Virus record (IMG/VR): IMGVR_UViG_3300009130_001805
Coordinates: 1 to 64,000 of that record
Direction: 5' to 3' (one strand)
DNA length: 64,000 nucleotides
Origin: a virus
A program made the position numbers and the translations under genes. Below are positions 1,458 to 60,494 of the stretch, one piece after another; within the stretch, counting starts at the first letter, position 1; each line of letters opens with the position of its first letter. A model generated the notes under the pieces. That model was not told the origin of the DNA. It saw only the letters and a list, made by a program, of their open reading frames with translations, and did not search any database.

Positions 1458-2156
1458 CTAAGAAGGACAGGGCTGGAAAGACGTCTCTATATCCCCTAAA
1501 TCTTCATCTTTTTTACCGTCTCTTTCTGTGGTAAGTGCATCACTGTAATCAATTGGGCTCTCTTCTCTTACCAACAACGCTTCAGCACCAGATTCTTCTA
1601 TAATCTCGAAGCCGTCGAAATAGTCTCCATTTATAAAAACTCCTTTTTTGAAATCTCTAGCGCTTGCCATTTGGGCCGAGTAAGAAACATCTATAAATCG
1701 CCCTTGATCTCCAATGGAAAGCTGGTAGGATGTTGTATCTAAAACTGCACCGCGAATTTCATAAGACATAAATTCTTTTTTTTGTCTGTAACACATTTTT
1801 TCATCAATGCAATCTGTTCTTTTTAAAGAAATTTTTATATTATGTTTTTCGTTTCTAAGAAGCTCGCTAGTTAGATTAGTCTCGTAGATATCTGAAGCTA
1901 ATGCAGTAAAAGACATGCTGACTGTAAAGGGGAACTCCAACATCTTTGCGTAGTAAAAATTGCAGCCGAGCCTTTGTATTACAAGCCTACCTAATGGAAT
2001 ATCTACTTCAAAGCTTTGTGCGTGAAAATGTTTTGCGCTATAAAGCATTCCTTCATGTGCGAAATTTATAGTTATATCCCCCGGAGATAAAACCGCTGGA
2101 CCTCTTAGTGGGGATGCATCTGGGACGCCAAATTTAGGTACAAGACAATCAGACAT
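1458..2156 (-). CDS. Tail-tube-fold protein, homologous to the C-terminal half of the 40808-42907 protein
   Basis: LSPGDI / HAQSFEVDIPLGRLVIQRLG / LEFPFTVSMS / YEIRGAVL...SIGD align with LRPGDI / HIQSFSLSCPIGRSVIQRLG / IDFPVTMSVS / YIIAGARL...SIGD. Confidence 0.7.
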   Translation of the reverse strand: MSDCLVPKFGVPDASPLRGPAVLSPGDITINFAHEGMLYSAKHFHAQSFEVDIPLGRLVIQRLGCNFYYAKMLEFPFTVSMSFTALASDIYETNLTSELLRNEKHNIKISLKRTDCIDEKMCYRQKKEFMSYEIRGAVLDTTSYQLSIGDQGRFIDVSYSAQMASARDFKKGVFINGDYFDGFEIIEESGAEALLVREESPIDYSDALTTERDGKKDEDLGDIETSFQPCPS

Positions 2157-2163
2157 TATTTTC

Positions 2164-3294
2164 CTATGTTAAATTTATTGGAACTCCACTAGTTAAAGAG
2201 CCATTGAAATTGTCCGTCACGGTTAAATTAAGCATGGTGGAAACACTTCCTAGGCTTTGCTCGTCTATAGGCATAGTTATTTGCCCTGAAACTGTGTTAA
2301 CTCTTTCGAAATGACCGGGTTCTGGTATATCAAATAAATAAGATTTAATATAACTATTAACTCCTTTGCTTCCTTCGGCGCTAACAGAAACAGTTTCTCC
2401 AAATAGATAATTTCCACCAGTAAAACTAACTGATTCGTCGTCTCTAGTTATTTTTATTTCTGGAATTGGAAGTTCTTGTGGAATGTGGGGTAATAAAGTG
2501 TCACTTTTAAAATTAACTGCAGGGATATTTATTTGATCATAGGCGACATCGCCTTTTATGTTTGACCCCTCCATCGTGAAGGTAGCTGTAGCCGGGCTAC
2601 CAACTTCCCCTTTTGCGGAATAATTAGTTAAGAAGCAATTTCCTATGCTAATTACCGTTCTATTTGATTCTATCTCTCCATCTAGGTATTGATAATCTGC
2701 GCTTTTTTCAAAGTTTATATCTTCTCCTTCAGGAGCGGTGACAATGAATATGTTGCCCCCATCTGTTATTAAGTCCTGATCCCACACGCAATTTGCTTTG
2801 TCCTCTCCTAATTTAAGGCCTATTATGTGTTCATTTTGACCATCAGAAAGATAATAATTTGCCTGAAAGCGAACTACTGGCTCAATAAGTTCTACCCTGT
2901 CAATTCTAGCTAATTGACCAAACTGGTAGACATCTATAAAACTTCTTTCAAAACCATAGTCAGCAGATTGAATTCTTTTTAATTGTCGAACTTTATTGCC
3001 AGCATAAGAAAAGAAATCTCTGTTGCGTTGATCTGGGGCCCAGCTGCCTGTACCGGGGTAATGATTTATGTAGCCTGTTCCCTCTACTGTCCTAAGCTTT
3101 TCTGGAGAACTGTTAGCTAAATCTATAATTTTTTTCGGCAAATCCTCCCAAGGGTAGTTTTTGGGATATGTTTCAAACGCCGCATAATCATGATAGTGAT
3201 TACCTGTACCATCATGACAATAGTATACGGCTTCGGACTGATATATAATTCTGTTCCGACGCTTTTTCTTTGCGAGCTTCCTTATTATGGCCAT
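2164..3294 (-). CDS. Tail-tube-fold protein, homologous to the N-terminal half of the 40808-42907 protein, with a C-terminal Ig/PKD-like domain
   Basis: RNRIIYQSEA, LKRIQSADY...QFGQLARID, VISIGNCFLTNYS and IPAVN match RNRVIYQSEA, LSRVQTANY...QFGQLGRID, VISVGNGYITDYS and IPAVD; ends with PKD-like LNLTVTDN. Confidence 0.7.
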   Translation of the reverse strand: MAIIRKLAKKKRRNRIIYQSEAVYYCHDGTGNHYHDYAAFETYPKNYPWEDLPKKIIDLANSSPEKLRTVEGTGYINHYPGTGSWAPDQRNRDFFSYAGNKVRQLKRIQSADYGFERSFIDVYQFGQLARIDRVELIEPVVRFQANYYLSDGQNEHIIGLKLGEDKANCVWDQDLITDGGNIFIVTAPEGEDINFEKSADYQYLDGEIESNRTVISIGNCFLTNYSAKGEVGSPATATFTMEGSNIKGDVAYDQINIPAVNFKSDTLLPHIPQELPIPEIKITRDDESVSFTGGNYLFGETVSVSAEGSKGVNSYIKSYLFDIPEPGHFERVNTVSGQITMPIDEQSLGSVSTMLNLTVTDNFNGSLTSGVPINLT

Positions 3295-3343
3295 ACCTTA
3301 TCCCTTACCATTTGTGGATTACACAAATAACAAAGGATTTGAC

Positions 3344-44520: not shown

Positions 44521-44969
44521 TCTGCCGGCTGAAGATAAAAACTATAAATATGAGGAGAAAAAACTCCATGAGGCCTCTCCTGCCCTGTCATTATAAAAGT
44601 CTTTCCATCAAAAGTTACTCTTTTTGCATCCTTTAAATACTCATACGCGTCTTGTTTCACTTTTATTCTCACGGACCCCACAGGAAGCTCTACTTTTATT
44701 TGTGCATTTGCTTCATCTACATTTTCTTCGTCCTGATATTTGCCGTATAAAATCGTAGCCTTAAACTCCTGAACCACAGGAACATTATCTATACTCTCCT
44801 GCTTTCCTCTTACATTGTTGTACAGCATGTTATAGTTTTCATTTTTTGTGGTTATTAAAACCCTTTGGGCTTCCTTGTAAACGAAAATACTCCTAGAGAA
44901 AGTGTCATGCACGGTTTCAACCGCCGCCTTCATTGCCGCCTTCGCAGCGTCTGATATTAAACTTGCCAT
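44517..44969 (-). CDS. Putative head-tail joining protein
   Basis: About 150 aa, beta-rich, RVTFDGKTF; positional. Confidence 0.45.
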   Translation of the reverse strand: MASLISDAAKAAMKAAVETVHDTFSRSIFVYKEAQRVLITTKNENYNMLYNNVRGKQESIDNVPVVQEFKATILYGKYQDEENVDEANAQIKVELPVGSVRIKVKQDAYEYLKDAKRVTFDGKTFIMTGQERPHGVFSPHIYSFYLQPAD

Positions 44970-45031
44970 AAATTATTTTACACTTAAATTGAATTTTTTC
45001 TCACTGTCTTTATTATTACTTAGGAATAAGG

Positions 45032-45322
45032 ATGCAAGCAAGCGATTTTTTAGCAGATATCTGTAGTAAGAACACTACGACTCTCTTTAAAGGTTTTCTA
45101 CACTTAGTGGAAGATCTTAAAAGCGAGCACGACTCTAATTTTAAAAAACTTAAGGAGGCTTTGCCCGAAGAATATCACAGCTTAATAAATCAAGCAGACT
45201 ATTTTGACGACGCTAAAATGCAACATCTTAGAAAAAGAATTCTAGATGTAGGCAACGAGAGTTTAAGAAATATTTTATACGAAGTTGAGAATTTTACTAT
45301 AACTTTTGATTTTGGAAATTAA
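45032..45322 (+). CDS. Hypothetical protein
   Basis: SD-like AGGAATAAGG before ATG. Confidence 0.6.
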   Translation: MQASDFLADICSKNTTTLFKGFLHLVEDLKSEHDSNFKKLKEALPEEYHSLINQADYFDDAKMQHLRKRILDVGNESLRNILYEVENFTITFDFGN

Positions 45323-45344
45323 TATATTATAAGGAAAAAGGAAA

Positions 45345-46142
45345 ATGGCAGACTCAGATACAAAAAAAGAACAAAAAACGATTTATAGCTTCTTGGTTGA
45401 AAAAGAAGAAGAAGTCGAGCAGACTGAAACCAAGAAGGTCAAAAACGAAGACACTGGTAAGACGGAAGAAGTCAAAGAGACCCGCAAGGTTAAAGAAAGC
45501 GTGCCCTATAGAGTTATCATCCGACAGCCCGGCAGAAGGGAAATGGAAGAAGCGGACATGGAGTACAGCATAGAGATGAGTAAATGCATCAAGAACGGCA
45601 TTCTCACAAAAGCCATGCTTGCTAAACAGTACAGTGATACAGGAGGGTTAATGACAGAAGAGGATGCTAAATTTCTAGACAGAAAATACGGCACCCTTGC
45701 AGATCTTCAAAATAAATTTACCAAACTTAGCGCCAAACAAAAGCGCACAGACGCAGACGAGCAAAAAATTAAAGAAATTACAGAGGAGCTTGCTGCGACA
45801 AGAAAAGTGATTATCGACCTAGAGACAAACTACTCCTCTCTATTTAATCACACCGCAGATTCGAAGGCTCAAAACAAAGCCATCATGTGGTATCTCGTCA
45901 ATCTCACTTCAATCAAAAAGGATGAAGATGAAGACGAAATGTTAGAGCCTTTATTTAAAGGAGAGTCTTTCGAAGAAAAGAAAGATTACTACTATGATCT
46001 TGAAGAGACTGGAGAAGACGAAATTTTTAATCTAGTTAATAATAAACTTACCACCCTTTTAAGTTTCTGGTATTTTAGCACATCAGCAACGAAAGATGAC
46101 TTTGAGCGTTTAGAAAAAGACATCGAAGAAGGTAACGTTTAA
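45345..46142 (+). CDS. Hypothetical protein, possible tail assembly chaperone
   Basis: Acidic and helical; upstream of the tape measure gene; SD AAGGAAAAGG. Confidence 0.5.
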   Translation: MADSDTKKEQKTIYSFLVEKEEEVEQTETKKVKNEDTGKTEEVKETRKVKESVPYRVIIRQPGRREMEEADMEYSIEMSKCIKNGILTKAMLAKQYSDTGGLMTEEDAKFLDRKYGTLADLQNKFTKLSAKQKRTDADEQKIKEITEELAATRKVIIDLETNYSSLFNHTADSKAQNKAIMWYLVNLTSIKKDEDEDEMLEPLFKGESFEEKKDYYYDLEETGEDEIFNLVNNKLTTLLSFWYFSTSATKDDFERLEKDIEEGNV

Positions 46143-46155
46143 ACTCTAAAATCAT

Positions 46156-47181
46156 GTGGCTGAGTCAACTGAGCCAGAGAGCTTCTTTAGGAAGATCTTT
46201 AGAGATATATCTAGAGGCTTTTCTAAAGAAAAGCTAGGTAATGATATTATATACATAAAACATCTTTCCCAAGATGATCAAGTTGAGCTTGATGATATTG
46301 AAGATGAATACCTAAAGGCTGCAAAAAAAAGAGGCCTACCATCCGAGCAGGAAATGCTTGACCTCCTAAAAGAACAGGGTGTCTGGGGTGATAAAGAAGA
46401 GGATGAGATAGCTGCAGACAGATTATTCATACAAACTCTTACTGACGCAAAAAGAACGCTTGTACTAAAGAGTCAAATAGACAAGAAGAATCAACAGATT
46501 GAAGAAGCCTCAAAAGAGCTTGAAAAAAAAGTTCACGATAGATATCAAGTTTTAGGTAATACTGCTGAAAAATATGCAAAAGAAAAATCCAATGACCACT
46601 ATATAATTCGTTCGTTTTTTAGTAATAAGAAATTAGATAAACCAATCTTTACTGAAAAAGACTTTTGGAGTCTAGATGACCGCCACCTACAAAAGGCGGT
46701 AGTTAAATACAACTCATTTTTTTCATCTTTTTCTGAGGATAATATTAGGCATTTATGTCTACAGGATTTTTATTATTCGTATTTCCCTTTTTCTGAATCT
46801 CCGGTAGATTTTTTTGGGCAAGCGATTGTAAATTTAACCTATAATCAATTAAGGCTTATAGTATATACTAAAATTTTCAAAAATATCTTTGAGAGAAATG
46901 ACGCTATACCTTATCAAATAAAAAAAGATCCAGACGCCTTATTAGACTTTGGCAGTATCTCCGAAGAAACCAAAGAAAAAATTAAAGAAAAAATGGATGT
47001 TGATGGTGCTACAAGTTTCGTTGGCGCAACGAAGGAAGACCTTGATTATCTTAACCTTAGGGAGAAAAAAGAAGGTGATAGTGTAAGGACTGTATCACTA
47101 ACAGAAGAGGCCAAAAAGAAAGGTGGAAGCTTAAACATGGAAGACCTAATGCGGATGCAGGGAATGGATGTAGGAGATTAA
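46156..47181 (+). CDS. Hypothetical protein, possible tail assembly chaperone
   Basis: Immediately upstream of the tape measure gene. Confidence 0.5.
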   Translation: MAESTEPESFFRKIFRDISRGFSKEKLGNDIIYIKHLSQDDQVELDDIEDEYLKAAKKRGLPSEQEMLDLLKEQGVWGDKEEDEIAADRLFIQTLTDAKRTLVLKSQIDKKNQQIEEASKELEKKVHDRYQVLGNTAEKYAKEKSNDHYIIRSFFSNKKLDKPIFTEKDFWSLDDRHLQKAVVKYNSFFSSFSEDNIRHLCLQDFYYSYFPFSESPVDFFGQAIVNLTYNQLRLIVYTKIFKNIFERNDAIPYQIKKDPDALLDFGSISEETKEKIKEKMDVDGATSFVGATKEDLDYLNLREKKEGDSVRTVSLTEEAKKKGGSLNMEDLMRMQGMDVGD

Positions 47182-47234
47182 TTTAGTAAAGACGCTTTTT
47201 TCTGTGTAATTCCCCGTTGGAAAAAGGAATTAAA

Positions 47235-50200
47235 ATGGCACGCCCAGTAAGGATACCAGCACAGCAACAAGGATTTGAGAAGTCCGTTATGGACGCCGTT
47301 AATCGGCTGAACAGAAGCGGACAGCTCAAACTTAATGTAAACTCTAGATCTTTTACCCAACCTCTGGGGAAGATCACTGCCAGCGCGGATGAGTTTACAA
47401 AGTCTCTCGAAGCTTCTAATGCTCGTGTTATTGCTTTCGGGGCTTCTGTAGGAATCATTAATGCGGTTAGCAATGCTTTTAAAAGTTTGGTGATCCAAAC
47501 AATGGAAGTCCAAAAGCAAATGGCTGAAATTAACGTCGTTATGCAGACAGGAACCGAAGGGCTTCAGAAAATGCAGACTGGGTTATTTAAAATAGCCAAA
47601 GAAACTGCTCAATCTTTTAGTGTTGTCACCGAGGCTGCTCTTGAATTTTCGCGTCAAGGCTTGTCTATGGAAAAAACTCTTCTTGCTACAAAGCAAGCCA
47701 TGATTCTTACTAGAATTACAGCTCTGGATGCTGCCGAAGCTGTAAAAGGTCTTACTGCTGCGGTCAATGGATTTGTAGATGCAGGCATTAGCCACACTCA
47801 AGTTGTTAACAAAATGTCTGCTGTCGATGTTAATTTCGCAGTCAGTACGGAAGATTTAATTCACGGTCTTGAGCGAGCTGGAGCTGTTGCTCAGGACGCT
47901 AAAGTAAATTTTGATGAGCTAATGGGCGCCATTACTGCTGCGCAGCAAATAACCGCTCGAGGTGGTAATGTAATAGGTAACTCATTTAAAACTATTTTTA
48001 CCCGTATACAAAGAAGCTCCACAATAAACCGACTAGAAGAGCTTGGCATCGCTGTTAAAGATCTGGAGGGTCGTACGCTTCCTGCGATGAAAATACTAAA
48101 GGAGCTTGCTATAACATATGACGGCTTAGCAGATTCAACAAAAGCTGCTGTAGCCGAGCAAGTCGGTGGGGTTTTCCAGATTAACATTTTAAAAGCTGCC
48201 CTTAAAGACCTTGGCAGGGAAAATAGCGTATTCGCTAGAGCTACAGAAATATCTAATAGAGCTACAGATGAAGCCACAAAGAAAAATGAAGCCTTAAATA
48301 AGACTCTTTCAGCTCTTGCGGCCCAAACAGGCACATCAATCCAGCAGCTTTCAGAAGCTATTGGAAAGCTCTCAATGGGAGGAGGAATTGAAAAAGTTTT
48401 AAAAACTATCAATACTATCGCAGAAGGAATGTTCAAAGGCATAGAGTCTGAAGGCATTGGTGGAGATCTAGCTAGAGGACTGCTAAAAGGTATGGGCAAT
48501 ATACTTTCTGGGCCCGGATTAATACTTGTGGGCGGCATGTTTGTTAAACTATTTGGTGAGGTTACAAAGTTTGCCACAAAAAGTATGGCTAACATTATTG
48601 GGATTACCACTCAAAAGCAAAAACAAAAAGCGGTAGAAGAAGCGATCCTTAAGGTTATGATGGAAAATGAAGGCATTGAAGCTTCATTGCTTGCGATGGG
48701 TAAAAACAGAGTTCTGCAAGAAGAGCATGTACTGAAACTTATAAAACAGCAAGCAGCTGCTGCTCGAGAAAGAGCTGCTATAGCTGCGGCAGTTGCCCCG
48801 GGCCTAGTTAGGTCTGGAGTTAAAGGGCCTAGTCTTTCAATTAAGGGTGGCGCTGCTGGAGGAATCATTCCAGCTTCTGAAAGAAATGCAGAGAGAAAAG
48901 GCGCAATATCAGCTGGATACTCTCCCGGAAAAGTTTCTTCTACAAAAATAAAAGGAGTTGGAGATGTCGTATATAACAAAGCTGAATCGATAAAAGAATT
49001 TCCGGGTATGCAGCAAAAGGCTATCATGCCTCCAGAGTCTAGCAGAGCTGGCTCTAAATATGCAAAAGCGTTCAAGAAAGCTCATGGATTTGACCCCTAT
49101 GCGCCATCAGGCTTTATTCCTAATTATGGAATTGTTGGCGCTCGTGGCTCAGCTTCACTAGCTTTATCCAGAACAAATATGGTGACCCATGGAACCGGGC
49201 GAGGGCAAAATACTCGTGCCATGGACAAGAAGTATGGAGAAAGCGGAGAAAAGTTATTTGCAACAGAGACTGCTAGATTTGTAAATAAAAACACTCCAGA
49301 AGAAAAAAGAAACCTATTAGGCAGGATAATGACACGCTTGCTAGACAAAGGAATTGTTAACTTTACTCGCCCCGGATATTTTCAAAAAGAGTCTTTTAAA
49401 ACAAATAGAAGAAGCTCCGAAAAAGATTTCGATCAATTCGAGAGGCATATGGTCAAACAATTATCTAGCGAAGGATATAAAAGCACAGGTAGAGTTATAG
49501 ATCCCAAAACAAGAAAAGTCGAAGCAGGAAACAATCAATACCCTCAAGATGCTTTTGCCAAAGGCAAGGTTCCTCGAGAATTTAAAATTAATAGAATTGA
49601 CGAGAAAGACATATTAAGTAAGTCAATAAGAAGGACTACCGATCTCGACCCTCAAGACATCCTTAATGGCAAATATACAAGGGGAGATATTACAAAAGGC
49701 AATGAATTTATACAAGTCTTAAGAAATAACTTCGGCCCAAGCTCAGGCAATCACGATGAAATCTTAATGGGTTTAGTAAACAAGTTTCAAAAGTCTAACC
49801 TAGATTCAGCTTTGAATTTATTACGCCAGAAAAAGATTGATGTTCCCGCTGGAGAAGAAGCTTACACTGCCGCTATTCATGGCTTACATCGGGGCTTTAT
49901 TCCTAACTATATTGGAAGAAGGCGTATGCCGTCAAAAGCGCATCTCGAAAAAGCAAAAAAATCTATAGATATATACAGAAAGCTTACATTAAGCAGAAAA
50001 AGATCAAGAGACTACGACGGGAACCTTGCCACAGAAATTAGTAATGCTTGGGGACTTAAAGACCCAACTCACTCTACAATAGTAAAAACTTTCGGAAGGA
50101 TTAAAACCGATAAGTCGGCCCACAAAACTGTCAACGAGGAAGTTCTTGACATAATGGCAAACCCCGCAAAATATAAAGACCTTTTTAAGAAAAATAATTT

Positions 50201-53200
50201 ACCTGCACCAGACTGGTCGGCGAGCCAAGGCAAATCTGCACTAAACCTTTTTACAAAAGAAGGAAAATTTGGCACCCTAGATAAGGTAAAAATGGGCCAA
50301 AAGAGCAAGCTTGATGGAGACGACTGGGAGCAGACGGTAAGGGATATTTTTAAGAAAGGAATCAAATCTGGCTCAATAACCGACCTTAATACTATTAAAA
50401 AGAATTTTCCTTTAGACTTCAAAGGTGACAAGGGATTTCTCGATGCAACTCTAAATGTTCACAAGCTGAGAGTTATGCACCATAAAATTGCGAGAACACT
50501 AGCTCAACAAAACCCCTCTGCACTTAAAAGATTACTATTAAAAGGAAAGGATTTTGATGGGGTTGAAGCTCTTGGAGGGTTGGCGGAAATCTCTAAAGTT
50601 TCTTCTGGCATTAGAAGTCTTTCTAGAATGAAAAATAGTCGCTCTTTATTCCCTGAAGGTAAATTTGTCGGAGGCGTCGGGCAATCTACTGAAGATTTTT
50701 CTAGAAACATGCAAAAATGGTATGATGGATTAACTCCTGCCCAACAGAGTACAGCTCAATCGTCCCAAATGAGTGGATCTTGGAAGGTTCAATCTCCCCA
50801 AGAGTATCAAATGGCCGCAAGCGGGTTTGTGCCAAACTTTATTAGGATGATAAACCCATCAAAAGACAGAAGTTTTTTGCTTAAAATGTGGCAAGATAAG
50901 CTCAAGAAAGCAAAAAGCATTAGTCGTTCAGGCAAACCTAGAATAGAAACAGACCCTCAAGTTTCAAAACTTAACGCTGAAGCAAATCACATATGGGATC
51001 AAATACAATTACTAAAGAAGGGTAAGCCATATTCTATTCCTAATTTTGCAAACATATCAAAAATTAGAGAGCTAGCCAAGAGGGGTAAAGGTGGAGAAAA
51101 AGCTAATGCTCAAAGAATGCTAGAGAAGTTTTCTATAAAATCTAAAGGCATGTTTGATGATATGATTATTGATGATTTCTTAAGGGATCCAAAGATGTCA
51201 TATAAAGGGCCTTGGGGGGACACAGTAACAGATTACTTATTAAGCAAAGGTTACGATAAAAATCAAATATTAAAAGCCTCAAAAAGTCCTAGTTCATATG
51301 CCCGCGCCGCAGGAGGTGTGATCCCAAATTTTGTCCGCTGGATTAAAAATCCCAAAGGGGGCAAAGACCTTCCCAGTCCAGATATAGATCCAAGAACAGG
51401 TAGGCCAAGCGGAATATACACCAGCAGAGATATCCACGAAATGAAAGCCAAAGGCTACATGCGAACAGACGAAAAAGGCTGGCACTATGTAGGAAAAGGA
51501 AAAGTTAAATCCGCAGAAGCTAAGATAAAAGAAGAGCGCCGTTTGATGGCCATGGCTACGATTGGCCTCAGGGGAAGCGGAAAAGCTTGGATGCATCCAA
51601 AAACAGGCAAAATGTATACTGGGTCCGACCACCAACAAATTGCTGCAGATAACGGCTTATTTAACAATGGCATGGTTCGTGACTATGTTCGAATAACAAA
51701 ATCAGACCGCTCTCTTTACATAGATAAAAAAGGCCTTGATGTTAGTTCTGAGGCGATGGGTAAGCTTAAAAATATAGCTCAAGACGATTACTATAAAATC
51801 ATAGAAGACCGAGGCATACTGGGCGAAAAAGTATTATTTGACCCAAAAACAGGACCCTTCTCTGGAGGACACGTTCCTAATTTCGCAATGGCGGATGTGA
51901 TAAGAAAATATCAATCAAGAAAATCTTCCAGATTAAATAAAGATCAATTTAACGCTACAAGCGCTGCGCTAACTAAATTTAATGCCGTTAATGGATTGTT
52001 TGCTCGTACGGCCTTAGCTGGAACTAGCAGAGTTAGACTCACTGAAAGAAATTTTAATAAAGTTAGGCAATTCATTAACAGTAAAGAATTTAGACAATTA
52101 GACAAATTAACACAAAATAAAGTACTTGTCGATTTAAAATCTCAGTCCCAGTCTTTAGGATTGCCAGATGTTACTAGGGGCTACGGCCAGCATCGCAACC
52201 CTCTATTCGAAGGTCGAATTGCCGCCTCAAGCGGATTAATCCCGAACTTTTCAAACCCCCTTTCTCAGGCAATATCTAGAGAAAAAGCTGCGGGCGTGCC
52301 TGAAAACATGATAAGAATTTCTCAGTCTGACAGGCTTAAGGGGCCTAAAAACCCTAGTGGGCTTGCAGTAATAAATACTAGAGATGAACCGATGGGGATA
52401 AATCAAGGTATCAATAGATCTATTTCAATGGGGATTGACCCTAAGAGCCATGGAGCAAGCCAAGGCGTTGTTCCTAATTTTACAAATCCTCTTGCTCCCG
52501 GTAGCGTTGGACCCGCCGGCAGTCAGCTTTCAGATATATTAAAAAAAATAGGGGTATCAGGAAACCAATTAGTTTCCATCCTTACTCAATTAACTCCGGA
52601 GTTTAATAAATTTAGAGCCAACTTAAGTTCGGGCGGTACAGCAGCCAATCAACACGCCAGAAAAGTTACCTCAATGATTTCAAGTCTTGGGCTGGAAGAA
52701 GCCCAGACTAAACAGCTTATGAGGGAATTTTCTAATTTGGGCACCACTGCCAACACGGGGGCAAGCAAGCTAAAATCTTTCATAAGTCAGCTGGGCGCCA
52801 AATTAGGCCAAGGCCCACTTGGTCAAGCCGCCTCTGATGTAATGAAAAGCGGGCCAGTTCAAGCTGTAGCAGGTTCAGGCGGAATGTTTTCTATGTTCAA
52901 TCAGGGCCTTCAAGGGAATGTAACTCCATCCACTTCTAGGGCCGGTCGAGCGGGGCAAGCTGTCAATAAGTTACATGGTAAAGTCTCAAGCCCGGGAATG
53001 CAAATGGGAATGATGATGGCTCCCATGATGACTGAAATGATGGCGGAGAGCATCAGGGGCAATAAACCAAAATACGAAAGAAGTAAAGCTTCAAGAGCAA
53101 CGACAGGCGCTATATCTGGGCTCGGAGATATTGCTATGTATACAGCAATGGGAAGTATGTTCGGGCCTTGGGGAACGGCAATAGGAGCTGCGGTTGGCGC

Positions 53201-56200
53201 AACAATTGCATTAACAAAAGTTTTTAACGAAGCTTCATTATCACTAGAAGATATACAACAAAGGAACGCCAGTTACGCCGCAGAAATGCAAAAAGTCACG
53301 GGCTCCATACAGGGTTATGAAAAATCAGTTGCTGCAGTTAATCAAGCCAGAAAGTCAGGAAACTTTAACGCCACAGTAAGAGCTTCTCAAAATGAAATGA
53401 ACGCCCGCGCAGATCTGAGATTGTCAATGGGCTCTAGCTTTGCGGATAAATATATAAAAGAAACTGATAAAAATAAGAAAGCAGAATTAGCTCTAAAAGC
53501 TTTTGATGCGCAGGCTGCAGTTTCCTCCCTAGCGTCCTCCGAAGAACTTATCAAAGGACTCTCAGAACAAGATTTAGCGGGTTGGTCCCTTGTAAACTTT
53601 GGCGGAGAAGCTAGCGATGATATCAGACAGGCTGCGAATGATAACAGCAAAAACGCACAAGCATACCAATCTGCAGAAAACTCAATGATGAGAGCGGGTC
53701 GAAACTTGCAATCACTTGAAGGCGTTCTAGATGACCGAGGCAAGGAAGAATTAAAAGACTTTTTTAACGACGACAGATTCAACCGACTTGCAACGGGAAC
53801 TGGGACAGGCCCGAGCTACTCGAACGACGTAGCTGAAGATATGGCAGAAGAACTCAGCGAATTAATGCTTAGGCTTCAAGGCAATATAGATGACGATATT
53901 GGAGGTGAAAACCTAGCTCTTATTCAAAAACAATTACGTGCATTTTCTGACACAATAGGAGATCTAGATGAATCAGATGAAATTCAAGCTACCTTTGGCA
54001 ACTTAAAGAAAGGTATGGATTTGCGAGTAAGAGAAGAGCTTGATCTTCGAAGCAAGCATGCAAGACAATTAATGCAGGAATTTAACCGCTTTGAAAGGCA
54101 ACTCTCTGTGGTTTTCGCGGATATAACTCATCAATTTAAATCCATAGACATTATGGACGGTGCAATCTCTGCCGGGCAAAGACAGAGTTCAGAAATGATG
54201 ATGAGGTCTGTTGAATCTACTGGAATGCTCGGACTAGAGACTCAAGCTAGGCTGCGCGGAAGTTTACAATCAGACCAGATTAGCTCAAAATACTCGCAAG
54301 AAATTTCTGGCGCTCGCAGAGACGCTCAATTAGGATTTTCTAAACAGTTAAGCGGCAAGAATTTTTCTGAAGCCCTAACCGGCTCCCTAGGTGACCCAAG
54401 CAAATCAGGTAAAACCATGCTCCCTAAAGTGATGGGGGAATTTCTTAAAGACTCTAGTCAGTCTATTGAAGAAAGAGAGAAATTAATGCAGGGAGAAATT
54501 ACAGACGGCTTCAAAAATTTTGTTTTAAATAGAACTGAAGATTTAAACTTTAAAGCATTAAAGGATGAAATTGAGAGTGAAGGTTTTTCTAAAATAGACA
54601 AGCAAATATCTGACTCTGAGGGGCTGCTAGCAAAATACAGGAAGGGTAATGACGGAAGGACAGAATTTCAAGGAGGCAAGTCCGAATCCATATATAGAAG
54701 TCAAGGAGAGGGCATGCCGGGAGTGGGCCAAGATCTTATAAATAAAGGAGGTACGGTAGCAAAAGATTTTGCATTTAAAGGAAGTGGGAGTTCATATGAA
54801 TCGCTAAGTCATCTTTTCGATATTAAAGGTCAGGAAGGAAAAGGCTCTATAAATAATGCGAGAATACGAAGAAACTTAACTTTTACAGACACTGAAAAGG
54901 ATTTAAACGACATTTCGTCGGGAGGAATAAATTATTTTAACGATACGATAAAGCATCTTATAAAAAAATCTCTTGGATCCGACCCGAAAGTTGCAGGCTT
55001 TGAAAATGTAGACGAGATCAATCAGGCTTTTGATGATTTCATGCAGCGAAAAGTTACAGAGACGGCCACGATAGTAGGCGCAGGAGTATCCTACTCAGAA
55101 CAAGGGACTTTAGATTTTTCTGATGTGTTAAATGATGAGATCAAGTCACAAGTAGAATCCATTAGGCAAAGCGCTATAGACAAAATTAAAAAAGGGAATG
55201 AGCTGGATCAAATAAAGTCAATGCTTGACCCATCGAGCGATGGATTTTCAAAAGACATAAAAGAGATCTCAGAGTCATTAAAAACGACAGATGTAGGAAA
55301 GGAGCTTTTTAAAAGTCTCGAAGAGTTGGACCGAGTACAATCTCTTTTGAAGCAAAGAATGGCCGCAGAAGAAGCTTTACTAAAACAACAGACTGAATTT
55401 GCTATTGCTCAAGCTGGGATAATGGACGCAAGCCAAGCTCAAATTAGAGAAGCACAAAGAAGTCTCTCAAGAGTAGAATTAAATAATCAAGGGCAATTTG
55501 TTAACAAAGGAATAGAAGCTGAAAAAAGAGCTTTGAAGGCTGCCAATGCTAGAGAGCTTGAAATGTCAGCAGCTCAAGCTAATTATAATAATATAGGGCT
55601 AACATCTGGAAGCAAAGAGTTTCTTGCTACCCGAGCGGTAGAAGATAAACGAAAACTTCAAGAGCCAGCATTAATTGCAAAAGAAACAGAGATAGCATCT
55701 GAAAAAATTAATCAATTATTTACTCCAGAAAAATATGCTACACTCCTTCCTCCTGCTTTAGAGCTTGGAGAAGTGGCAAAAGAAAGAGCGGCTGATTTAG
55801 AGCGCCAGAGAAAAGACAATGAAAAAAATATTGAAATATTCAAGAGATCTTTCAGAACAGTCATGGGTGTCGCTGAAGATGCGGAGATTGAAGGCAAGGG
55901 AGGCGTTAAGGCTCAATACACAGAAGCATCCACGACAGACAAACCACCATCACAAGCCCAAACTGACGCATATAATAATTTAATTAATGCCGAATCAAAA
56001 AGAGGTTTCTTAGCTGATCAACAAAGCAAAGCAGGAGGCCCACATACAAAAGTAGTCCTAGATGCAATGAACTCCTATCAAGAGGATATCACTGCTTATA
56101 ACGACTCATTCAAAGGTATTTCTGACGCTTTCAAAAATGCTCCACGCGACAATGAAAAAGACCTGAGTGCAGCCGTAGAAGGCCTGAAGGCTAGCATTGG

Positions 56201-59200
56201 AGAAGAGATATTAAAATTTTATAGCAAAGATACTGCATTTGGTACTAAAGATCAATTTCAAAATTTATTAAAAGGAGCAGGGGAGGGCACTGCTGACTAT
56301 CAAGCCCTACAGGTTGCCAACAACCAATTCCAATCCAATAAAGAAGCCTTTATAACTAAAAATGGTGAAGCTAATATTGGAAAATTGGGGGAAAATTTTG
56401 AGGATATGCTCAATGAAGCGACAACATCAGTAGCAAACCTCAGAGAAGCCTTCCAACAAGCGGGTAAGGATGCTTCAGCTGCGGAGAAAGAAATCGCCCT
56501 ACAAAGAATCGCAAACGACAAAGCTGCTACTGCTGCTACAAAACTTGCGGCACGAACTAGATCTGTAGCAGACAGCATGACCGATCTTGGTTCAGCCTTG
56601 TCCCACATTAATGAACTTAGCTTGCAATTCATACAAGCTTCCCTTGATACAGATATGGGTCAAGCGGGAATGACTTCCTCGCAGATCTCCAAGAGGCAAA
56701 GAGATTTTGATTTAATTCGCGAGGTATCACAAGGTCGAGACCAATTACAAAGACAAAGCAAAGAAGCCACGTCGAGTTTTATTAGCCAAATTCAAGGGTT
56801 AGACATTGACGATTCAATCAAAAAAGAATTTCTTGGCAATTTCGATAACAAAGAAACTAAAGCAGGGATTGTAAATGCAGAAAGCTTCAAAGCCGCTGCG
56901 GAAAATGTTCTAAGCAACACTAATTTTTATTCTGATGCAAAATTTGCACAAGGGGTTCCAGCTTTTGGTAAAAAAGGAGCCAGCGAGGAAGACATAAACA
57001 ATTTCGCAAACAACACTTCCGCCCGAGAAGCGCTAAGAGCAGAAATTGAGAAGTCAACAAATGCTATTAAATTAAATGAACAAACAATTGGTAGAGAAGT
57101 TTCTTATAGACAAAGACTTAATTCTCTATTAGATCAAAATGCTAGATACATGCAAAGCTTTGGGGCAGGAGTCTCTGGAGCAATGAGCTCAATTAAGGAG
57201 AGATTAGAAAACTTCCGCCGTACCGAAGGAGAAACCTTAGTTAGTTCGATGAACGAAGGATTCAAGAGAAATGCCATGGGCGACTACGGAGAAGGAGAAA
57301 GTTTCTTTTCTATAATAAATGATCGCAATAGAGAGATCGTAGCCCAAAGAAATGCAGACGCTGCTACAAATATTGTATTTGGAGACCAAATTGGAAAAAC
57401 ATTGGAGGCTTTTGGGGTTGAGGGTGCCGCTGAAAAATATGACATGGGCAAATTCTGGGACCCAGAAGGTAACGAGCAAAAGCGTGCAAACGAAAAAATG
57501 CTCACAAGCTTTAATGAAACAGGAAGCCTTGGAGACGACAGTCTAGATTTCTTAAGAAGCGATCTTTTAAGCTCAAAAGATATTCAAGCTGTAACCGCAG
57601 ATAATACCCGTAAAATGGTTGAGCTACTTCAGAGCATGAAAGAGCAAGGTTTCGCGGGTGGAAATATGGGGGACGGCTCTACAGTCATGAGCCAAGAAAC
57701 CGCCACAAAAGAAGGGCAGCAAAGAATGGTTGGGGCATTAAACAACCAAACAAAACAAGACGCAACAAACACAGACTCGCTCAAGAGCACTGTCACTCAA
57801 TCAAGCAGTGATAGCGCAGGCGTAATTAGCACCATGCTTGGATCTGCGATTGGTACGTTTAAAAGCGTAAGCGGAATTAATAACGATTTCCAAAGCGGGC
57901 AGTGGGGCGACGCAGGAAGAAGTGTTTTTGACGGAGCAAGGGCTGCTACTACAAAAGTCGGAGATTGGCTTGATGATGATGAAAAGAAAGCTTTTCGCGG
58001 AGGATATATTTCAAGATTTAACTTCGGTGGGCGCGTTCCTCAATTTGGAGGAGATCATAATACCGATAATGTTCCTGCATTACTTACTGGAGGAGAATAT
58101 GTTATAAGAAAAGATTCGGTAGAAAAATATGGAAAAGATTATTTTGAAAAACTTAATAAAGGATTAATCCCTAAAGAATTTGAAGACGGGGGTGATGTCA
58201 AGAAGGCGGAAAGAAGCTGGCTTTCGAAGAAAATAACTAAAATGCAAAGTAATTTTTCTAACGAAATGAATCAGTTCAAAAACATGAAGCAGGGCATGGA
58301 GGCAAGCGAAGGAAGTTTTGCTAGCATGTTTGGAAGTGGCAAGACAAATCGCCGATCCAAAGTAAACATGGGTATGACCAAAAATGAAGGTACTGGCAGT
58401 TTTTGGACTCAACCAAAAGTTTCTAAGGACGATTTTGGTAATGACGTGGTTGAGCTTAACAGTGATCTCACCGGCCCTGCAGAAACTGAAATGAACTGGA
58501 GTAACATTGGAAATGCAGCACAACAAGGTTTAAACTTAGTAGGTAACGTTGCTAAAGGTTATCAAAACTATAAACAAGGTAAAAAAAATAGAGCCGCCGA
58601 ACTAGCCAAAGCAAGAGCGCAAGAAGACGAAAAACGTAGAAAAAGAGATTATCAGCTACTTAAACCTTTAGAGTATTATGATATGGCTGCAACTCAAATT
58701 GATCTAGGCGGACTATCAGGAAAAAGTTCAATTGACCAAGGCAAGCTTAGGCTTTCTGCCGCAGCAATGACCGGACAAATTCAAGGAGATCGATACGGAA
58801 CACTTTTAGTTAATGTTCAAAGAGCTACTCATCAAAATAAAATTAATGATAGACTTTTTGATATTGAATATGCAAAACAGGCAGCCTACGCAAAAGCAGT
58901 TGATAAGTACGAAAAGAAAAAAATGATTGCTGATTCTCTGATTCAAGTTGGTGGGTCTATAGCTAGTTTTGCTGGAGCTGGACAATTCATGCAAGTAGCA
59001 AACATGACAAAAGATTTAGCGGGAGGAGCACAAGCTTTATTTGGAGTTCAAGACCGAAGCCAAGTAAAGCCAGCAAGCCTCAGTGAAGTCATGAAGCAAT
59101 CCAAAGAAAGAAGAGAAGATTTTTCTGGCCCAGCAATGGATATCCATCAGTACGGAAGTTTTCAAAGATTGCAACAAAGATACGCAAATGTTAAATCTGG

Positions 59201-60494
59201 ATCCACTAGTGGAGCAGATTTATACCTTGGAGGATTTGAGTTAACCCAACCCGGACAGAGAGTAAGAAACCCAGCTTTATATGGTAAGACGAGAAAAGAA
59301 AGACAAGGAAAATTTTTAGGAGGATTAATAAAGCTCGCCGGAGGCGGAACTGTTAATTATGACGCTTCAAGAGTTACAAGGTCTTCTCGCCCCGATGTGG
59401 CTGGCTCAGAAAGGTCAGGAAGGGCGATGACAGGATATGATACAAAAGGTAGAGATATATATAACTCTTTTGCGATGGGAGGCCAAGTCCCGACACTTCA
59501 GAAAAAAGATATTTCTATTGGGCATGATTTAATAGATAGAATCTCTACCCCAGATAGCTTGAATCTTAACCTTGATGACTTTGAGGTTCAAGAGGTGGAT
59601 AATGCTTTTCAGCTTCCTGATTCTATTCTCAATTCTGTTTCTAATAAAGGTTCTGTTTTTAATCCCGCTATAATTTCTACGATGGCAAAAGGGTTTGACT
59701 ATCTTGCCTCAAGAAAGCAAAAGGGTGGAGATATAACTGCCCCGCTAGACCCCATGGGAATGCTGGCGCTAGCGCTTGGCGGAGTAGTTAACTCTTCAAA
59801 AAAAATTGCATCTTCTGTTTTAGGTTTAGCAAAAGGAGGTTTAACAAATTTAAAAATCAAACCTGATCTTTCTACTGGGGTCACTGCTCACTTATTAAGT
59901 ACCTACAAAAATAGTAATCGCCATGGCAAGGCAGGCGCAGACTCTATGTTCTCACAACTAGGAGCAACGATAAAAACCGCAGGACTAAGACATAACAATG
60001 AAAATCAAACTACAGGCAAAATACAGAAATCTCACATCCTTAGCGAAAAGGCTCTCGGAGGCCCCATTGAATTACAAGCGCTAACAAAATATTCTTCTGG
60101 AGGCAATGTAACCGGAGGTTCTGGAGTAAGAGATGATGTCCCTGCTCTCTTATCTGAGGGAGAGTATGTTATAAGAAAAAGCTCTGCCCAAAAATATGGA
60201 GCAAACTTTCTCAACCAACTTAATGCGGGTACTAAAGCGGTTAGCAGATTTGCTGAAGGCGGGGCAGTTGGGGAAACAGAATCTTCTCCGTCCATCTCTG
60301 AGTCTAAAGAAGTCACTCATAATATATCTCAGAATTTTACTTTTAATATTTCAAAAGATGGGTCAAGCTCCGAAAGTGAAGAAGGTGACGACATGAGCGA
60401 AAACGAAAGAGAAAAAGAATTTGGAAGAAGGGTGCGCGTAGCCTGCCTTAAGGTTATAGAAGAAGAGCGCAGAATTGGAGGCTTACTGCATTAA
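47235..60494 (+). CDS. Giant tape measure protein (about 4,420 aa) with internal cassettes
   Basis: TP901-like N-terminal core (EFSRQG, GNVIGNSFKTIFTRI, VGGVFQINIL), long helical regions, two D.VPALL..GEYVIRK modules; ATG 47235 follows SD AAGGA. Confidence 0.88.
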   Translation: MARPVRIPAQQQGFEKSVMDAVNRLNRSGQLKLNVNSRSFTQPLGKITASADEFTKSLEASNARVIAFGASVGIINAVSNAFKSLVIQTMEVQKQMAEINVVMQTGTEGLQKMQTGLFKIAKETAQSFSVVTEAALEFSRQGLSMEKTLLATKQAMILTRITALDAAEAVKGLTAAVNGFVDAGISHTQVVNKMSAVDVNFAVSTEDLIHGLERAGAVAQDAKVNFDELMGAITAAQQITARGGNVIGNSFKTIFTRIQRSSTINRLEELGIAVKDLEGRTLPAMKILKELAITYDGLADSTKAAVAEQVGGVFQINILKAALKDLGRENSVFARATEISNRATDEATKKNEALNKTLSALAAQTGTSIQQLSEAIGKLSMGGGIEKVLKTINTIAEGMFKGIESEGIGGDLARGLLKGMGNILSGPGLILVGGMFVKLFGEVTKFATKSMANIIGITTQKQKQKAVEEAILKVMMENEGIEASLLAMGKNRVLQEEHVLKLIKQQAAAARERAAIAAAVAPGLVRSGVKGPSLSIKGGAAGGIIPASERNAERKGAISAGYSPGKVSSTKIKGVGDVVYNKAESIKEFPGMQQKAIMPPESSRAGSKYAKAFKKAHGFDPYAPSGFIPNYGIVGARGSASLALSRTNMVTHGTGRGQNTRAMDKKYGESGEKLFATETARFVNKNTPEEKRNLLGRIMTRLLDKGIVNFTRPGYFQKESFKTNRRSSEKDFDQFERHMVKQLSSEGYKSTGRVIDPKTRKVEAGNNQYPQDAFAKGKVPREFKINRIDEKDILSKSIRRTTDLDPQDILNGKYTRGDITKGNEFIQVLRNNFGPSSGNHDEILMGLVNKFQKSNLDSALNLLRQKKIDVPAGEEAYTAAIHGLHRGFIPNYIGRRRMPSKAHLEKAKKSIDIYRKLTLSRKRSRDYDGNLATEISNAWGLKDPTHSTIVKTFGRIKTDKSAHKTVNEEVLDIMANPAKYKDLFKKNNLPAPDWSASQGKSALNLFTKEGKFGTLDKVKMGQKSKLDGDDWEQTVRDIFKKGIKSGSITDLNTIKKNFPLDFKGDKGFLDATLNVHKLRVMHHKIARTLAQQNPSALKRLLLKGKDFDGVEALGGLAEISKVSSGIRSLSRMKNSRSLFPEGKFVGGVGQSTEDFSRNMQKWYDGLTPAQQSTAQSSQMSGSWKVQSPQEYQMAASGFVPNFIRMINPSKDRSFLLKMWQDKLKKAKSISRSGKPRIETDPQVSKLNAEANHIWDQIQLLKKGKPYSIPNFANISKIRELAKRGKGGEKANAQRMLEKFSIKSKGMFDDMIIDDFLRDPKMSYKGPWGDTVTDYLLSKGYDKNQILKASKSPSSYARAAGGVIPNFVRWIKNPKGGKDLPSPDIDPRTGRPSGIYTSRDIHEMKAKGYMRTDEKGWHYVGKGKVKSAEAKIKEERRLMAMATIGLRGSGKAWMHPKTGKMYTGSDHQQIAADNGLFNNGMVRDYVRITKSDRSLYIDKKGLDVSSEAMGKLKNIAQDDYYKIIEDRGILGEKVLFDPKTGPFSGGHVPNFAMADVIRKYQSRKSSRLNKDQFNATSAALTKFNAVNGLFARTALAGTSRVRLTERNFNKVRQFINSKEFRQLDKLTQNKVLVDLKSQSQSLGLPDVTRGYGQHRNPLFEGRIAASSGLIPNFSNPLSQAISREKAAGVPENMIRISQSDRLKGPKNPSGLAVINTRDEPMGINQGINRSISMGIDPKSHGASQGVVPNFTNPLAPGSVGPAGSQLSDILKKIGVSGNQLVSILTQLTPEFNKFRANLSSGGTAANQHARKVTSMISSLGLEEAQTKQLMREFSNLGTTANTGASKLKSFISQLGAKLGQGPLGQAASDVMKSGPVQAVAGSGGMFSMFNQGLQGNVTPSTSRAGRAGQAVNKLHGKVSSPGMQMGMMMAPMMTEMMAESIRGNKPKYERSKASRATTGAISGLGDIAMYTAMGSMFGPWGTAIGAAVGATIALTKVFNEASLSLEDIQQRNASYAAEMQKVTGSIQGYEKSVAAVNQARKSGNFNATVRASQNEMNARADLRLSMGSSFADKYIKETDKNKKAELALKAFDAQAAVSSLASSEELIKGLSEQDLAGWSLVNFGGEASDDIRQAANDNSKNAQAYQSAENSMMRAGRNLQSLEGVLDDRGKEELKDFFNDDRFNRLATGTGTGPSYSNDVAEDMAEELSELMLRLQGNIDDDIGGENLALIQKQLRAFSDTIGDLDESDEIQATFGNLKKGMDLRVREELDLRSKHARQLMQEFNRFERQLSVVFADITHQFKSIDIMDGAISAGQRQSSEMMMRSVESTGMLGLETQARLRGSLQSDQISSKYSQEISGARRDAQLGFSKQLSGKNFSEALTGSLGDPSKSGKTMLPKVMGEFLKDSSQSIEEREKLMQGEITDGFKNFVLNRTEDLNFKALKDEIESEGFSKIDKQISDSEGLLAKYRKGNDGRTEFQGGKSESIYRSQGEGMPGVGQDLINKGGTVAKDFAFKGSGSSYESLSHLFDIKGQEGKGSINNARIRRNLTFTDTEKDLNDISSGGINYFNDTIKHLIKKSLGSDPKVAGFENVDEINQAFDDFMQRKVTETATIVGAGVSYSEQGTLDFSDVLNDEIKSQVESIRQSAIDKIKKGNELDQIKSMLDPSSDGFSKDIKEISESLKTTDVGKELFKSLEELDRVQSLLKQRMAAEEALLKQQTEFAIAQAGIMDASQAQIREAQRSLSRVELNNQGQFVNKGIEAEKRALKAANARELEMSAAQANYNNIGLTSGSKEFLATRAVEDKRKLQEPALIAKETEIASEKINQLFTPEKYATLLPPALELGEVAKERAADLERQRKDNEKNIEIFKRSFRTVMGVAEDAEIEGKGGVKAQYTEASTTDKPPSQAQTDAYNNLINAESKRGFLADQQSKAGGPHTKVVLDAMNSYQEDITAYNDSFKGISDAFKNAPRDNEKDLSAAVEGLKASIGEEILKFYSKDTAFGTKDQFQNLLKGAGEGTADYQALQVANNQFQSNKEAFITKNGEANIGKLGENFEDMLNEATTSVANLREAFQQAGKDASAAEKEIALQRIANDKAATAATKLAARTRSVADSMTDLGSALSHINELSLQFIQASLDTDMGQAGMTSSQISKRQRDFDLIREVSQGRDQLQRQSKEATSSFISQIQGLDIDDSIKKEFLGNFDNKETKAGIVNAESFKAAAENVLSNTNFYSDAKFAQGVPAFGKKGASEEDINNFANNTSAREALRAEIEKSTNAIKLNEQTIGREVSYRQRLNSLLDQNARYMQSFGAGVSGAMSSIKERLENFRRTEGETLVSSMNEGFKRNAMGDYGEGESFFSIINDRNREIVAQRNADAATNIVFGDQIGKTLEAFGVEGAAEKYDMGKFWDPEGNEQKRANEKMLTSFNETGSLGDDSLDFLRSDLLSSKDIQAVTADNTRKMVELLQSMKEQGFAGGNMGDGSTVMSQETATKEGQQRMVGALNNQTKQDATNTDSLKSTVTQSSSDSAGVISTMLGSAIGTFKSVSGINNDFQSGQWGDAGRSVFDGARAATTKVGDWLDDDEKKAFRGGYISRFNFGGRVPQFGGDHNTDNVPALLTGGEYVIRKDSVEKYGKDYFEKLNKGLIPKEFEDGGDVKKAERSWLSKKITKMQSNFSNEMNQFKNMKQGMEASEGSFASMFGSGKTNRRSKVNMGMTKNEGTGSFWTQPKVSKDDFGNDVVELNSDLTGPAETEMNWSNIGNAAQQGLNLVGNVAKGYQNYKQGKKNRAAELAKARAQEDEKRRKRDYQLLKPLEYYDMAATQIDLGGLSGKSSIDQGKLRLSAAAMTGQIQGDRYGTLLVNVQRATHQNKINDRLFDIEYAKQAAYAKAVDKYEKKKMIADSLIQVGGSIASFAGAGQFMQVANMTKDLAGGAQALFGVQDRSQVKPASLSEVMKQSKERREDFSGPAMDIHQYGSFQRLQQRYANVKSGSTSGADLYLGGFELTQPGQRVRNPALYGKTRKERQGKFLGGLIKLAGGGTVNYDASRVTRSSRPDVAGSERSGRAMTGYDTKGRDIYNSFAMGGQVPTLQKKDISIGHDLIDRISTPDSLNLNLDDFEVQEVDNAFQLPDSILNSVSNKGSVFNPAIISTMAKGFDYLASRKQKGGDITAPLDPMGMLALALGGVVNSSKKIASSVLGLAKGGLTNLKIKPDLSTGVTAHLLSTYKNSNRHGKAGADSMFSQLGATIKTAGLRHNNENQTTGKIQKSHILSEKALGGPIELQALTKYSSGGNVTGGSGVRDDVPALLSEGEYVIRKSSAQKYGANFLNQLNAGTKAVSRFAEGGAVGETESSPSISESKEVTHNISQNFTFNISKDGSSSESEEGDDMSENEREKEFGRRVRVACLKVIEEERRIGGLLH

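Follow-up and report, generated by a model that had tools for sequence, protein, structure and literature searches.

Non-ruler domains embedded in the ruler are known from the tape measure proteins (TMPs) of phage T5 and mycobacteriophage TM4. The T5 protein pb2 has a muralytic domain and is cut after R1127, between a hydrophobic stretch and the enzyme domain (PMC10038345), and the TMP of TM4 carries a wall-hydrolase motif (Piuri and Hatfull 2006, as cited in PMC13277306). Here we analyze a giant TMP of the same family, encoded in the first 64 kb (64,000 nucleotides, hereafter “the window”) of the 78.9-kb viral contig IMGVR_UViG_3300009130_001805 from IMG/VR (completeness estimate 56%), in which a short peptide, G-x-[IV]-P-N-[FY] (the PNF motif), recurs between unrelated protein modules. 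In contrast to pb2 and the TM4 TMP, which each hold one embedded wall-degrading domain with peptidoglycan as its target and no repeated delimiter, this protein and its relatives carry 8-23 unrelated modules as a putative cargo directed at nucleic acid; the T5 cut site (after Arg) is also unlike PNF.

Short peptides that mark the exchange point of variable modules exist in polymorphic toxins as pre-toxin motifs (VENN in CdiA, ELYN in MafB); those proteins have one boundary each, a single C-terminal toxin and another secretion context, and their motifs have no sequence similarity to PNF. Polyvalent proteins (Iyer et al. 2017, PMC5512222) are giant multi-domain polypeptides as well, in which unrelated enzymes are united and domains extensively shuffled, and they presumably reach the host together with the DNA, but an embedded metallopeptidase (zincin-like MPTase) is credited with their processing, whereas none was detected here, and no common short delimiter has been described for them; the paper never mentions TMPs. 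Of the several unrelated effector or enzyme domains per polypeptide expected for that class, the relatives of the window TMP have staphylococcal nuclease (SNase) and CCA-adding modules, the window has only an enzyme-like residue set in one module (module 2), and 88 of 93 module clusters are unannotated. MARTX toxins (PMC6315884) share with the present proteins a delivery polypeptide with a central exchangeable effector array, release occurs by linker cutting, and they would be the closest working analogy if PNF is cut. Unlike the TMPs, they are bacterial exotoxins with RTX repeats, a built-in cysteine protease, up to five effectors and eukaryotic targets, and there is no homology; neither RTX repeats nor an inositol-phosphate-activated cysteine protease domain gave a Pfam match in the window TMP, and the analogy is one of principle only. 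The effectors Sle1 and Tme of contractile injection systems (PMC13277306) resemble the present case in having a TMP-like carrier with an exchangeable functional domain, which is loaded in the tube lumen and ejected, but their only functional domain is C-terminal, they lack a motif fence, and they belong to actinobacterial injection particles rather than phage tails. Our literature search found no paper that describes a repeated delimiting peptide in TMPs or combines “tape measure protein” with IPNF.

By its profile matches the window protein is a TP901-type TMP: PhageMin_Tail (PF10145) is recognized at 77.5 bits (Pfam cut-off 33.2), and PHROG TMP families match with a best E value of 2e-50. 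The database protein P0002 is 100% identical to it over 4,419 amino acids (aa), which makes the ATG listed in Table 1 the likely start. The PF10145 part with its hydrophobic end is followed by the motif array (aa 546-1755, net charge about +87, Pro mostly 5-6%), a Gly/Met-rich stretch, an acidic body and a C-terminal part, with the array located in the head-proximal 40% of the protein. Judged from its composition, the acidic body is presumed to be the length-setting helical part.

A preliminary description of this DNA had proposed that the array consists of swappable, mutually dissimilar and very basic cassettes delimited by the motif, delivering effector domains into the host. The motif copies and their positions proved right within 6 nucleotides (nt): eight exact [IV]PN[FY] sites are present (aa 634, 895, 1205, 1274, 1369, 1553, 1675 and 1752) in addition to one decayed copy, AAGGIIPA, while 2,000 shuffles of the protein gave a mean of 0.04 and a maximum of 2 sites. 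The eight intervals measure 84 (previously given as about 83), 261, 310, 69, 95, 184, 122 and 77 aa. The corresponding modules are indeed dissimilar to each other by BLAST apart from the motif, all are basic (isoelectric point, pI, 9.7-11.2), and each is recognized end to end by its own family profile. AAGGIIPA is evidently a real, decayed joint, because the module that follows it (aa 554-637) belongs to a 47-member family with canonical PNF motifs on both sides in relatives. An assumed mutual relationship of modules 1, 5 and 8 was discarded, as no relation was detectable once the motif had been stripped.

The motif is a trait of a whole TMP family. A search with the array region retrieved 68 giant TMPs (2,490-6,251 aa), all 68 of which carry the motif in 3-17 copies. 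An exhaustive HMMER search yielded 716 clusters (50% identity; E < 1e-3), the majority with a match to module 8 alone, and in IMG/VR 230 stretches encode module-8 relatives, of which 80 loci were fetched. The TMP frames of these 80 loci range from about 2,000 aa with 1-5 motifs to more than 6,700 aa with 22-23 motifs and still open at the locus edge. The largest racks seen are those of L045 (1-20225) and L071 (1-20228), where frames of at least 6,741 aa with 22-23 PNF motifs are open over the entire 20-kb locus. Since modules were delimited by a regular expression, an independent check was made with a motif-free hidden Markov model (HMM) for module-8 cores in proteins that had not been selected for the motif: among 133 such cores the exact motif lies directly upstream in 84% and directly downstream in 90%, and most cores without it carry near-variants, e.g. 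IPSF, VSNF or TPNF. The real number of joints is somewhat above our regular-expression counts, because variant joints are missed. In P0029, for instance, the variant joint GGFIPSF (aa 860-866, Ser for Asn) divides a 420-aa segment that was counted as one module. The basic character is just as general, with 86% of 416 family modules having a pI above 9, whatever the module family.

Comparison of the relatives provides clear evidence for module exchange at the motif. Cutting the 68 proteins at their motifs gave 458 internal segments, which fall into 140 families (77 represented by one segment only) and are arranged in 61 different architectures, with 43 family pairs occurring in both orders and 5 tandem duplications; identical collinear cassettes, which would have spoken against the proposal, are thus not what the relatives have. 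In whole-protein BLAST comparisons, which are blind to the regular-expression cuts, 45% of 11,264 ends of high-scoring segment pairs fall within 5 aa of a motif vs 4.5% for random positions, and the median distance to a motif is 6 aa vs 62 aa. Single cases are equally clear. P0004, 88% identical to the window TMP, lacks exactly modules 6 and 7, as the alignment halts at the motif ending at aa 1372 and restarts at the motif ending at aa 1678. The DNA of locus L002 has the same junction: its left side matches module 5 (84-87% identity), its right side matches module 8 (93-94%), and the junction motif looks chimeric between two window copies. In P0005 three additional modules are inserted at the motif ending at aa 1208. 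Module 5 of P0010 is 83% identical to that of the window, with an N-terminal backbone just 49% identical, and there are 32 cases in which a module is more similar than the backbone by 25 or more points of identity. The shortest common architecture consists of module 1, one large module and module 8, and the window TMP appears as an expanded version with six modules between these constant “bookends”. Inner modules have evidently been gained, lost, duplicated, reordered and laterally exchanged, with the junctions at the motif, and number and identity of modules vary exactly there. For the architecture alone, a TMP rack of separate modules fenced by the motif, our confidence is high.

At the joints themselves the conserved entity is a peptide. 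Across the eight window copies all synonymous positions vary (GGC/GGG/GGT/GGA, CCT/CCA/CCG, AAT/AAC, TTT/TTC/TAT), so the motif is not a DNA signal and selection acts on the peptide, not on the DNA; the peptide is moreover retained across TMPs of 20-50% identity. Extended over its flanks, the consensus of 474 distinct contexts reads A-[SA]-x-G(92%)-[FL]-[IV]-P-N-F(88%)/Y-[AS], the residue after the motif Phe being Ala in 47% and Ser in 14%. Natural variants (IPSF, VSNF, IPRF, IPNL) occur at otherwise conserved joints. No other frame of the 78.9-kb contig has the PNF motif, and in related loci the non-TMP frames, 381,000 aa in total, contain five matches only, which resemble fragments of broken TMP genes. 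Within the DNA covered the motif thus seems restricted to TMPs, which argues against a general virion-protease site. In L016 (3-437), L017 (1332-1928) and L018 (1332-1928) a small non-TMP frame 5' of the TMP ends in ...NRVPNYIG immediately before the stop; no other PNF-like site was noticed outside a TMP, and this one may be chance. Resemblances to known signals were considered and rejected: that to the beta-signal of outer membrane proteins (zeta-x-G-x-x-aromatic-x-aromatic), since a Pro occupies a position that calls for a hydrophobic strand residue; that to the Prp-type cleavage site of Firmicutes (between Phe and Ala); and that to prohead-protease sites, since non-TMP frames lack the motif throughout. 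Altogether, the PNF peptide has the character of a short linear motif recognized by a protein partner.

Some modules of the relatives are recognizable enzymes. A single 509-aa module of L045 (3482-5008) is a complete three-domain nucleotidyltransferase of the CCA-adding/poly(A)-polymerase type (Pfam head domain 72.0, RNA-binding domain 22.7 and domain 2 30.5 bits vs cut-offs of 23, 22 and 27), which keeps GGAPRD...DWD and RRDLTIN, i.e. the GG-x-x-RD...DxD and RRD motifs. A tRNA-repair-type enzyme within a tape measure protein is unexpected. In P0035 and P0029 an SNase domain (PF00565; 25.2 and 31.3 bits vs a cut-off of 21) fills one module and contains DGD, R-x4-D-x2-E and YGRGL/YRRG, motifs that we take to hold the catalytic Asp, Arg and Glu. 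By these residues the SNase and CCA-adding modules appear catalytically intact.

Within the window, the enzyme candidate is module 2, which groups, as a divergent member, with the most abundant family of large modules (hhalign probability 98.4%, HMM E = 4e-24). In alignment A8 (10 sequences, 20-25% identity) E742 (position 49440), D778 (49548), E788 (49578) and K790 (49584), or E105, D141, E151 and K153 in module numbering, are invariant as E...PxD...ExK, and the order Glu, (P)D, (D/E)xK is that of the PD-(D/E)xK superfamily. The second abundant family (alignment A9), the usual middle module of shorter TMPs, keeps FE...PFD...DAK with E-D-K invariant; the profiles of both families align weakly (probability 40%) with matching Glu and Asp columns. 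The AlphaFold2 model of module 2 (pLDDT 26-60) is too low in confidence to show the alpha-beta-beta-beta-alpha-beta core, and fold searches were uninformative. Searches of module 2 in PDB profiles, Pfam (to E = 10) and the ESM Atlas, where a module of cluster 4 likewise gave nothing usable, returned no described family in this notoriously divergent superfamily, and the weak Pfam matches of 38 nuclease-like modules did not converge on any PD-(D/E)xK family. On balance the residue pattern leads us to favor, by a little, a nuclease fold for module 2. Module 3 was considered as a second nuclease and rejected: only its PxD...DxT...H pattern is conserved, it has no Lys, and its Glu is variable.

AlphaFold2 models were built from the checked alignments A3 and A5 (predicted folds in Table 1). 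The preliminary description had held that the modules do not look like the helical TMP body. This needs qualification: modules 4, 5 and 7 are indeed modeled as helical, in the form of short hairpins or bundles, the models of modules 1 and 8 show small alpha/beta domains, and none is predicted as a long coiled coil. The motifs after modules 1 and 4-7 lie in unstructured linkers of low pLDDT in these models; beta-bridges are predicted with good confidence only for the motif at the end of module 8. Module 8 has invariant R, E, N, P, G, Q and R columns. Its core (52374-52430), with an invariant N-x-RDEP-x-G-x-x-QGI, resembles the HORMA closure motif of C. elegans HIM-3 (E = 0.13, PDB sequences), which we take as chance; PDB profile searches with the module-8, module-2 and cluster-4 alignments gave nothing beyond this resemblance.

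Table 1. The window TMP, its parts and the genes in front of it (positions in the window). Folds and pLDDT values (predicted local distance difference test) are AlphaFold2 predictions.
Feature	Positions	Strand	TMP residues (aa)	Remarks
Three upstream genes (96, 265, 341 aa)	45032..47181	+		Adjoin the TMP in 50, 60 and 64 of 88 loci
TMP gene	47235..60494	+	4,419 aa	From ATG 47235; open frame of 4,425 codons begins with TTG 47217 (47217..60494)
PhageMin_Tail domain (PF10145)	47595..48170	+	127-318	
Hydrophobic segment	48489..48575	+	425-453	Directly 5' of the array; Kyte-Doolittle, 19-aa windows, peak 1.67
Decayed motif copy AAGGIIPA	48852..48875	+	546-553	
Module 1	48876..49127	+	554-637	Constant first bookend; 47-member family, profile E = 3e-38; ends GFIPNY (49110-49127); alpha-beta4-alpha domain, pLDDT 77-85
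Module 2	49128..49910	+	638-898	Nuclease-like; ends GFIPNY (49893-49910)
Module 3	49911..50840	+	899-1208	Ends GFVPNF (50823-50840); first ~120 aa a confident helical domain, pLDDT 70-93, remainder without resolved fold
Module 4	50841..51047	+	1209-1277	Ends YSIPNF (51030-51047); helical hairpin, pLDDT 66-89 (10-residue block means)
Module 5	51048..51332	+	1278-1372	Small, helical; 40-member family; ends GVIPNF (51315-51332); short helical bundle, pLDDT 56-81 (block means)
Module 6	51333..51884	+	1373-1556	Rare family; ends GHVPNF (51867-51884); without resolved fold, pLDDT 30-74 (block means)
Module 7	51885..52250	+	1557-1678	pI 11.2; ends GLIPNF (52233-52250); short helical bundle, pLDDT 53-87 (block means)
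Module 8	52251..52481	+	1679-1755	Constant last bookend, most widely conserved element; ends GVVPNF (52464-52481); alpha-beta-beta-alpha domain, pLDDT 91-96, terminal motif in beta-bridges
Long acidic, proline-poor body	53517..58016	+	2101-3600	Net charge about -51, Pro 0-3% (composition)
Degenerate motif-like GGRVPQF, then first DxVPALLxxGEYVI module	58029..58109	+		
Degenerate motif-like GGQVPTL	59481..59501	+		
Second DxVPALLxxGEYVI module	60132..60176	+		Near the TMP C-terminus

Taking the rack as a whole, we incline towards the reading that the TMP carries exchangeable basic modules into the host. A string of small, separately folding, strongly basic domains sits between the PF10145/hydrophobic part and the acidic body, each ending in the motif peptide within a flexible linker. 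In other phages the TMP fills the tube as a trimer, as pb2 does in the T5 tail (PMC10038345), and exits ahead of the DNA. Because this exit before the DNA is established for T5 and lambda, the modules would likewise be carried into the host envelope or cytoplasm, and at least some of them may act on nucleic acids, given the intact SNase and CCA-adding enzyme of the relatives and the nuclease-like module 2. The turnover of modules would then reflect conflict with hosts. The joint peptide would be either a cutting site, in keeping with the small residues after the Phe, or a docking site. Our tentative preference is for a joint of standard form that a protein partner recognizes. Its likeliest role, by a narrow margin, would be that of a processing site, with a cut after Phe to release modules; somewhat less probably, the motif is a docking site for the tube, a chaperone or modules 1 and 8. 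Cleavage at the motif and module delivery are proposals drawn by analogy. In their most far-reaching form, which is possible and rather doubtful, the PNF peptide would be a programmed release or translocation signal, with the injected TMP polyprotein cut after each Phe into up to about 23 free proteins. It is a comparably speculative thought that the freed proteins (nucleases, a tRNA-repair enzyme and many of unknown function) form an “effector magazine” with one plug-in delimiter for all modules, reloaded by recombination in an arms race with host defences.

Several observations weigh against cargo delivery. No peptidase domain was detected in the TMP (Pfam) or in 93 module-cluster representatives, where a divergent peptidase could escape detection. 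In the Pfam census of these representatives 88 of 93 clusters are without any match. Stand-alone homologues of the two abundant large module families amount to one fragment and none, respectively, none of them domain-sized, so that these modules look TMP-specific rather than borrowed. Foldseek comparisons of both AlphaFold2 models with the PDB, and of the model of modules 4-8 with BFVD, found nothing at E <= 0.001, and no window module matched any solved or predicted structure, which is weak evidence given the multi-domain queries. The term “effector domains” of the preliminary description is partly supported, by the intact SNase and CCA-adding modules of relatives and the E-D-ExK residues of module 2; most module clusters have no Pfam family, and no fold match was obtained for the window modules. 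Packing against an acidic lumen of the tube, a structural role, would likewise be compatible with the uniform basicity. The motif of some relatives brackets the long body segment and C-terminal modules as well and is thus not purely a cargo fence. Finally, three copies of folded domains of 260-310 aa would by our estimate fit poorly into a tail-tube lumen of about 4 nm.

A good part of these observations would be accommodated by a structural or assembly role, which we regard as the least improbable of the alternatives and still as unlikely. The motif would dock to the tail-tube lumen or the tail assembly chaperone, or keep the three TMP chains in register, e.g. through strand addition to modules 1 and 8. 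In this view basic modules serve as packing against an acidic lumen, not as effectors, and their diversity would reflect relaxed constraint. The exclusiveness of the motif to TMPs, the constancy of modules 1 and 8, the beta-bridges predicted with good confidence between the last motif and the module-8 domain, the uniform basicity, the abundant modules without stand-alone homologues, the conservation of the upstream tail genes with the TMP and the bracketed body segments all agree with this. A packing role, on the other hand, does not readily account for catalytically intact SNase and CCA-adding enzymes. Modules are transferred laterally one at a time and over half of the families occur a single time, a pattern that belongs to conflict-driven cargo, and the remaining motifs are predicted to be disordered in the monomer.

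It is improbable that the array serves as a DNA pilot, with basic modules of nuclease fold that attach to the front end of the phage genome, or to host nucleic acid, but leave it uncut and drag or protect the DNA on TMP exit, and with the motif as a mere flexible hinge. The net charge, the head-proximal location and the fact that nuclease-like folds commonly bind DNA would suit such a role; the invariant E-D-ExK and the intact SNase residues argue for catalysis instead, a CCA-adding enzyme does not fit, and a hinge would not need an invariant six-residue peptide.

Even less credit is given to self-cleavage, in which the invariant Asn would cyclize and the chain be cut after PN with no protease needed. 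In its favor are the near-invariance of the Asn, the flexible surroundings and the lack of any detected protease domain. Against it stand the natural variants IPSF, VSNF, IPRF and IPNL at otherwise conserved joints, of which IPSF and VSNF make a strict dependence on Asn unlikely, and the structured active site that known Asn lyases require, whereas disorder is predicted for most of the present motifs. The idea that the motif is a recombination signal or microhomology joint at the DNA level, with peptide conservation as a by-product, was also raised in the preliminary description as a recombination joint; it is largely refuted and the weakest explanation: the 14-nt identity of copies 2 and 3 is real and concerns a single pair, junctions inside the motif, including the chimeric-looking one, are equally explained by selection for in-frame joints in flexible linkers, and both the free synonymous variation among the eight copies and the retention of the peptide in distant TMPs contradict it.

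Beyond the array, the window TMP has only two degenerate motif look-alikes, GGRVPQF and GGQVPTL. Two DxVPALLxxGEYVI(R)K copies are found near its C-terminus, the first preceded by GGRVPQF, and in some relatives canonical PNF motifs and a module-1-like unit are also present at the C-terminal end of the TMP. Gene orientation switches at about 44969-45032, with minus-strand genes upstream and a plus-strand tail operon from 45032 onwards, of which the TMP is the largest gene. The three genes upstream of it are without a Pfam or PHROG match and presumably encode tail tube, chaperone or partner proteins of an uncharted lineage; one gene 3' of the TMP has a weak tail-fibre PHROG match. These three and the downstream gene are syntenic with the TMP in 40-64 of 88 loci.

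The rack family comprises TP901-type TMPs of uncultured, mostly aquatic phages, and a tblastn search of the array against 50,697 deposited phage genomes gave no match. Contigs of metagenome-assembled genomes (MAGs) with matching TMPs were binned to five unrelated lineages. In one Halobacteriovorax MAG a closely related TMP gene (about 85% identity) is split between two contigs, L085 and L086 (PBIO01000001.1 and PBIO01000004.1), with one half at a contig end in each; this is probably a phage genome binned with that MAG, and it is the only, weak, hint at a host.

TMPs are usually treated as passive rulers and channel formers. The present family devotes 430 to more than 5,000 residues to a standardized, rapidly reshuffled module rack, some of whose modules appear to be intact nucleic-acid enzymes, and raises the physical question of how folded domains travel in, or with, a tail tube of about 4 nm. 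For the engineering of phage tails that carry protein cargo, the six-residue joint would offer a natural point of insertion. Delivery of the modules, if it occurs, would make them a large uncharted reservoir of first-strike phage proteins that arrive before phage gene expression, and plausible counter-defence or host-takeover factors.

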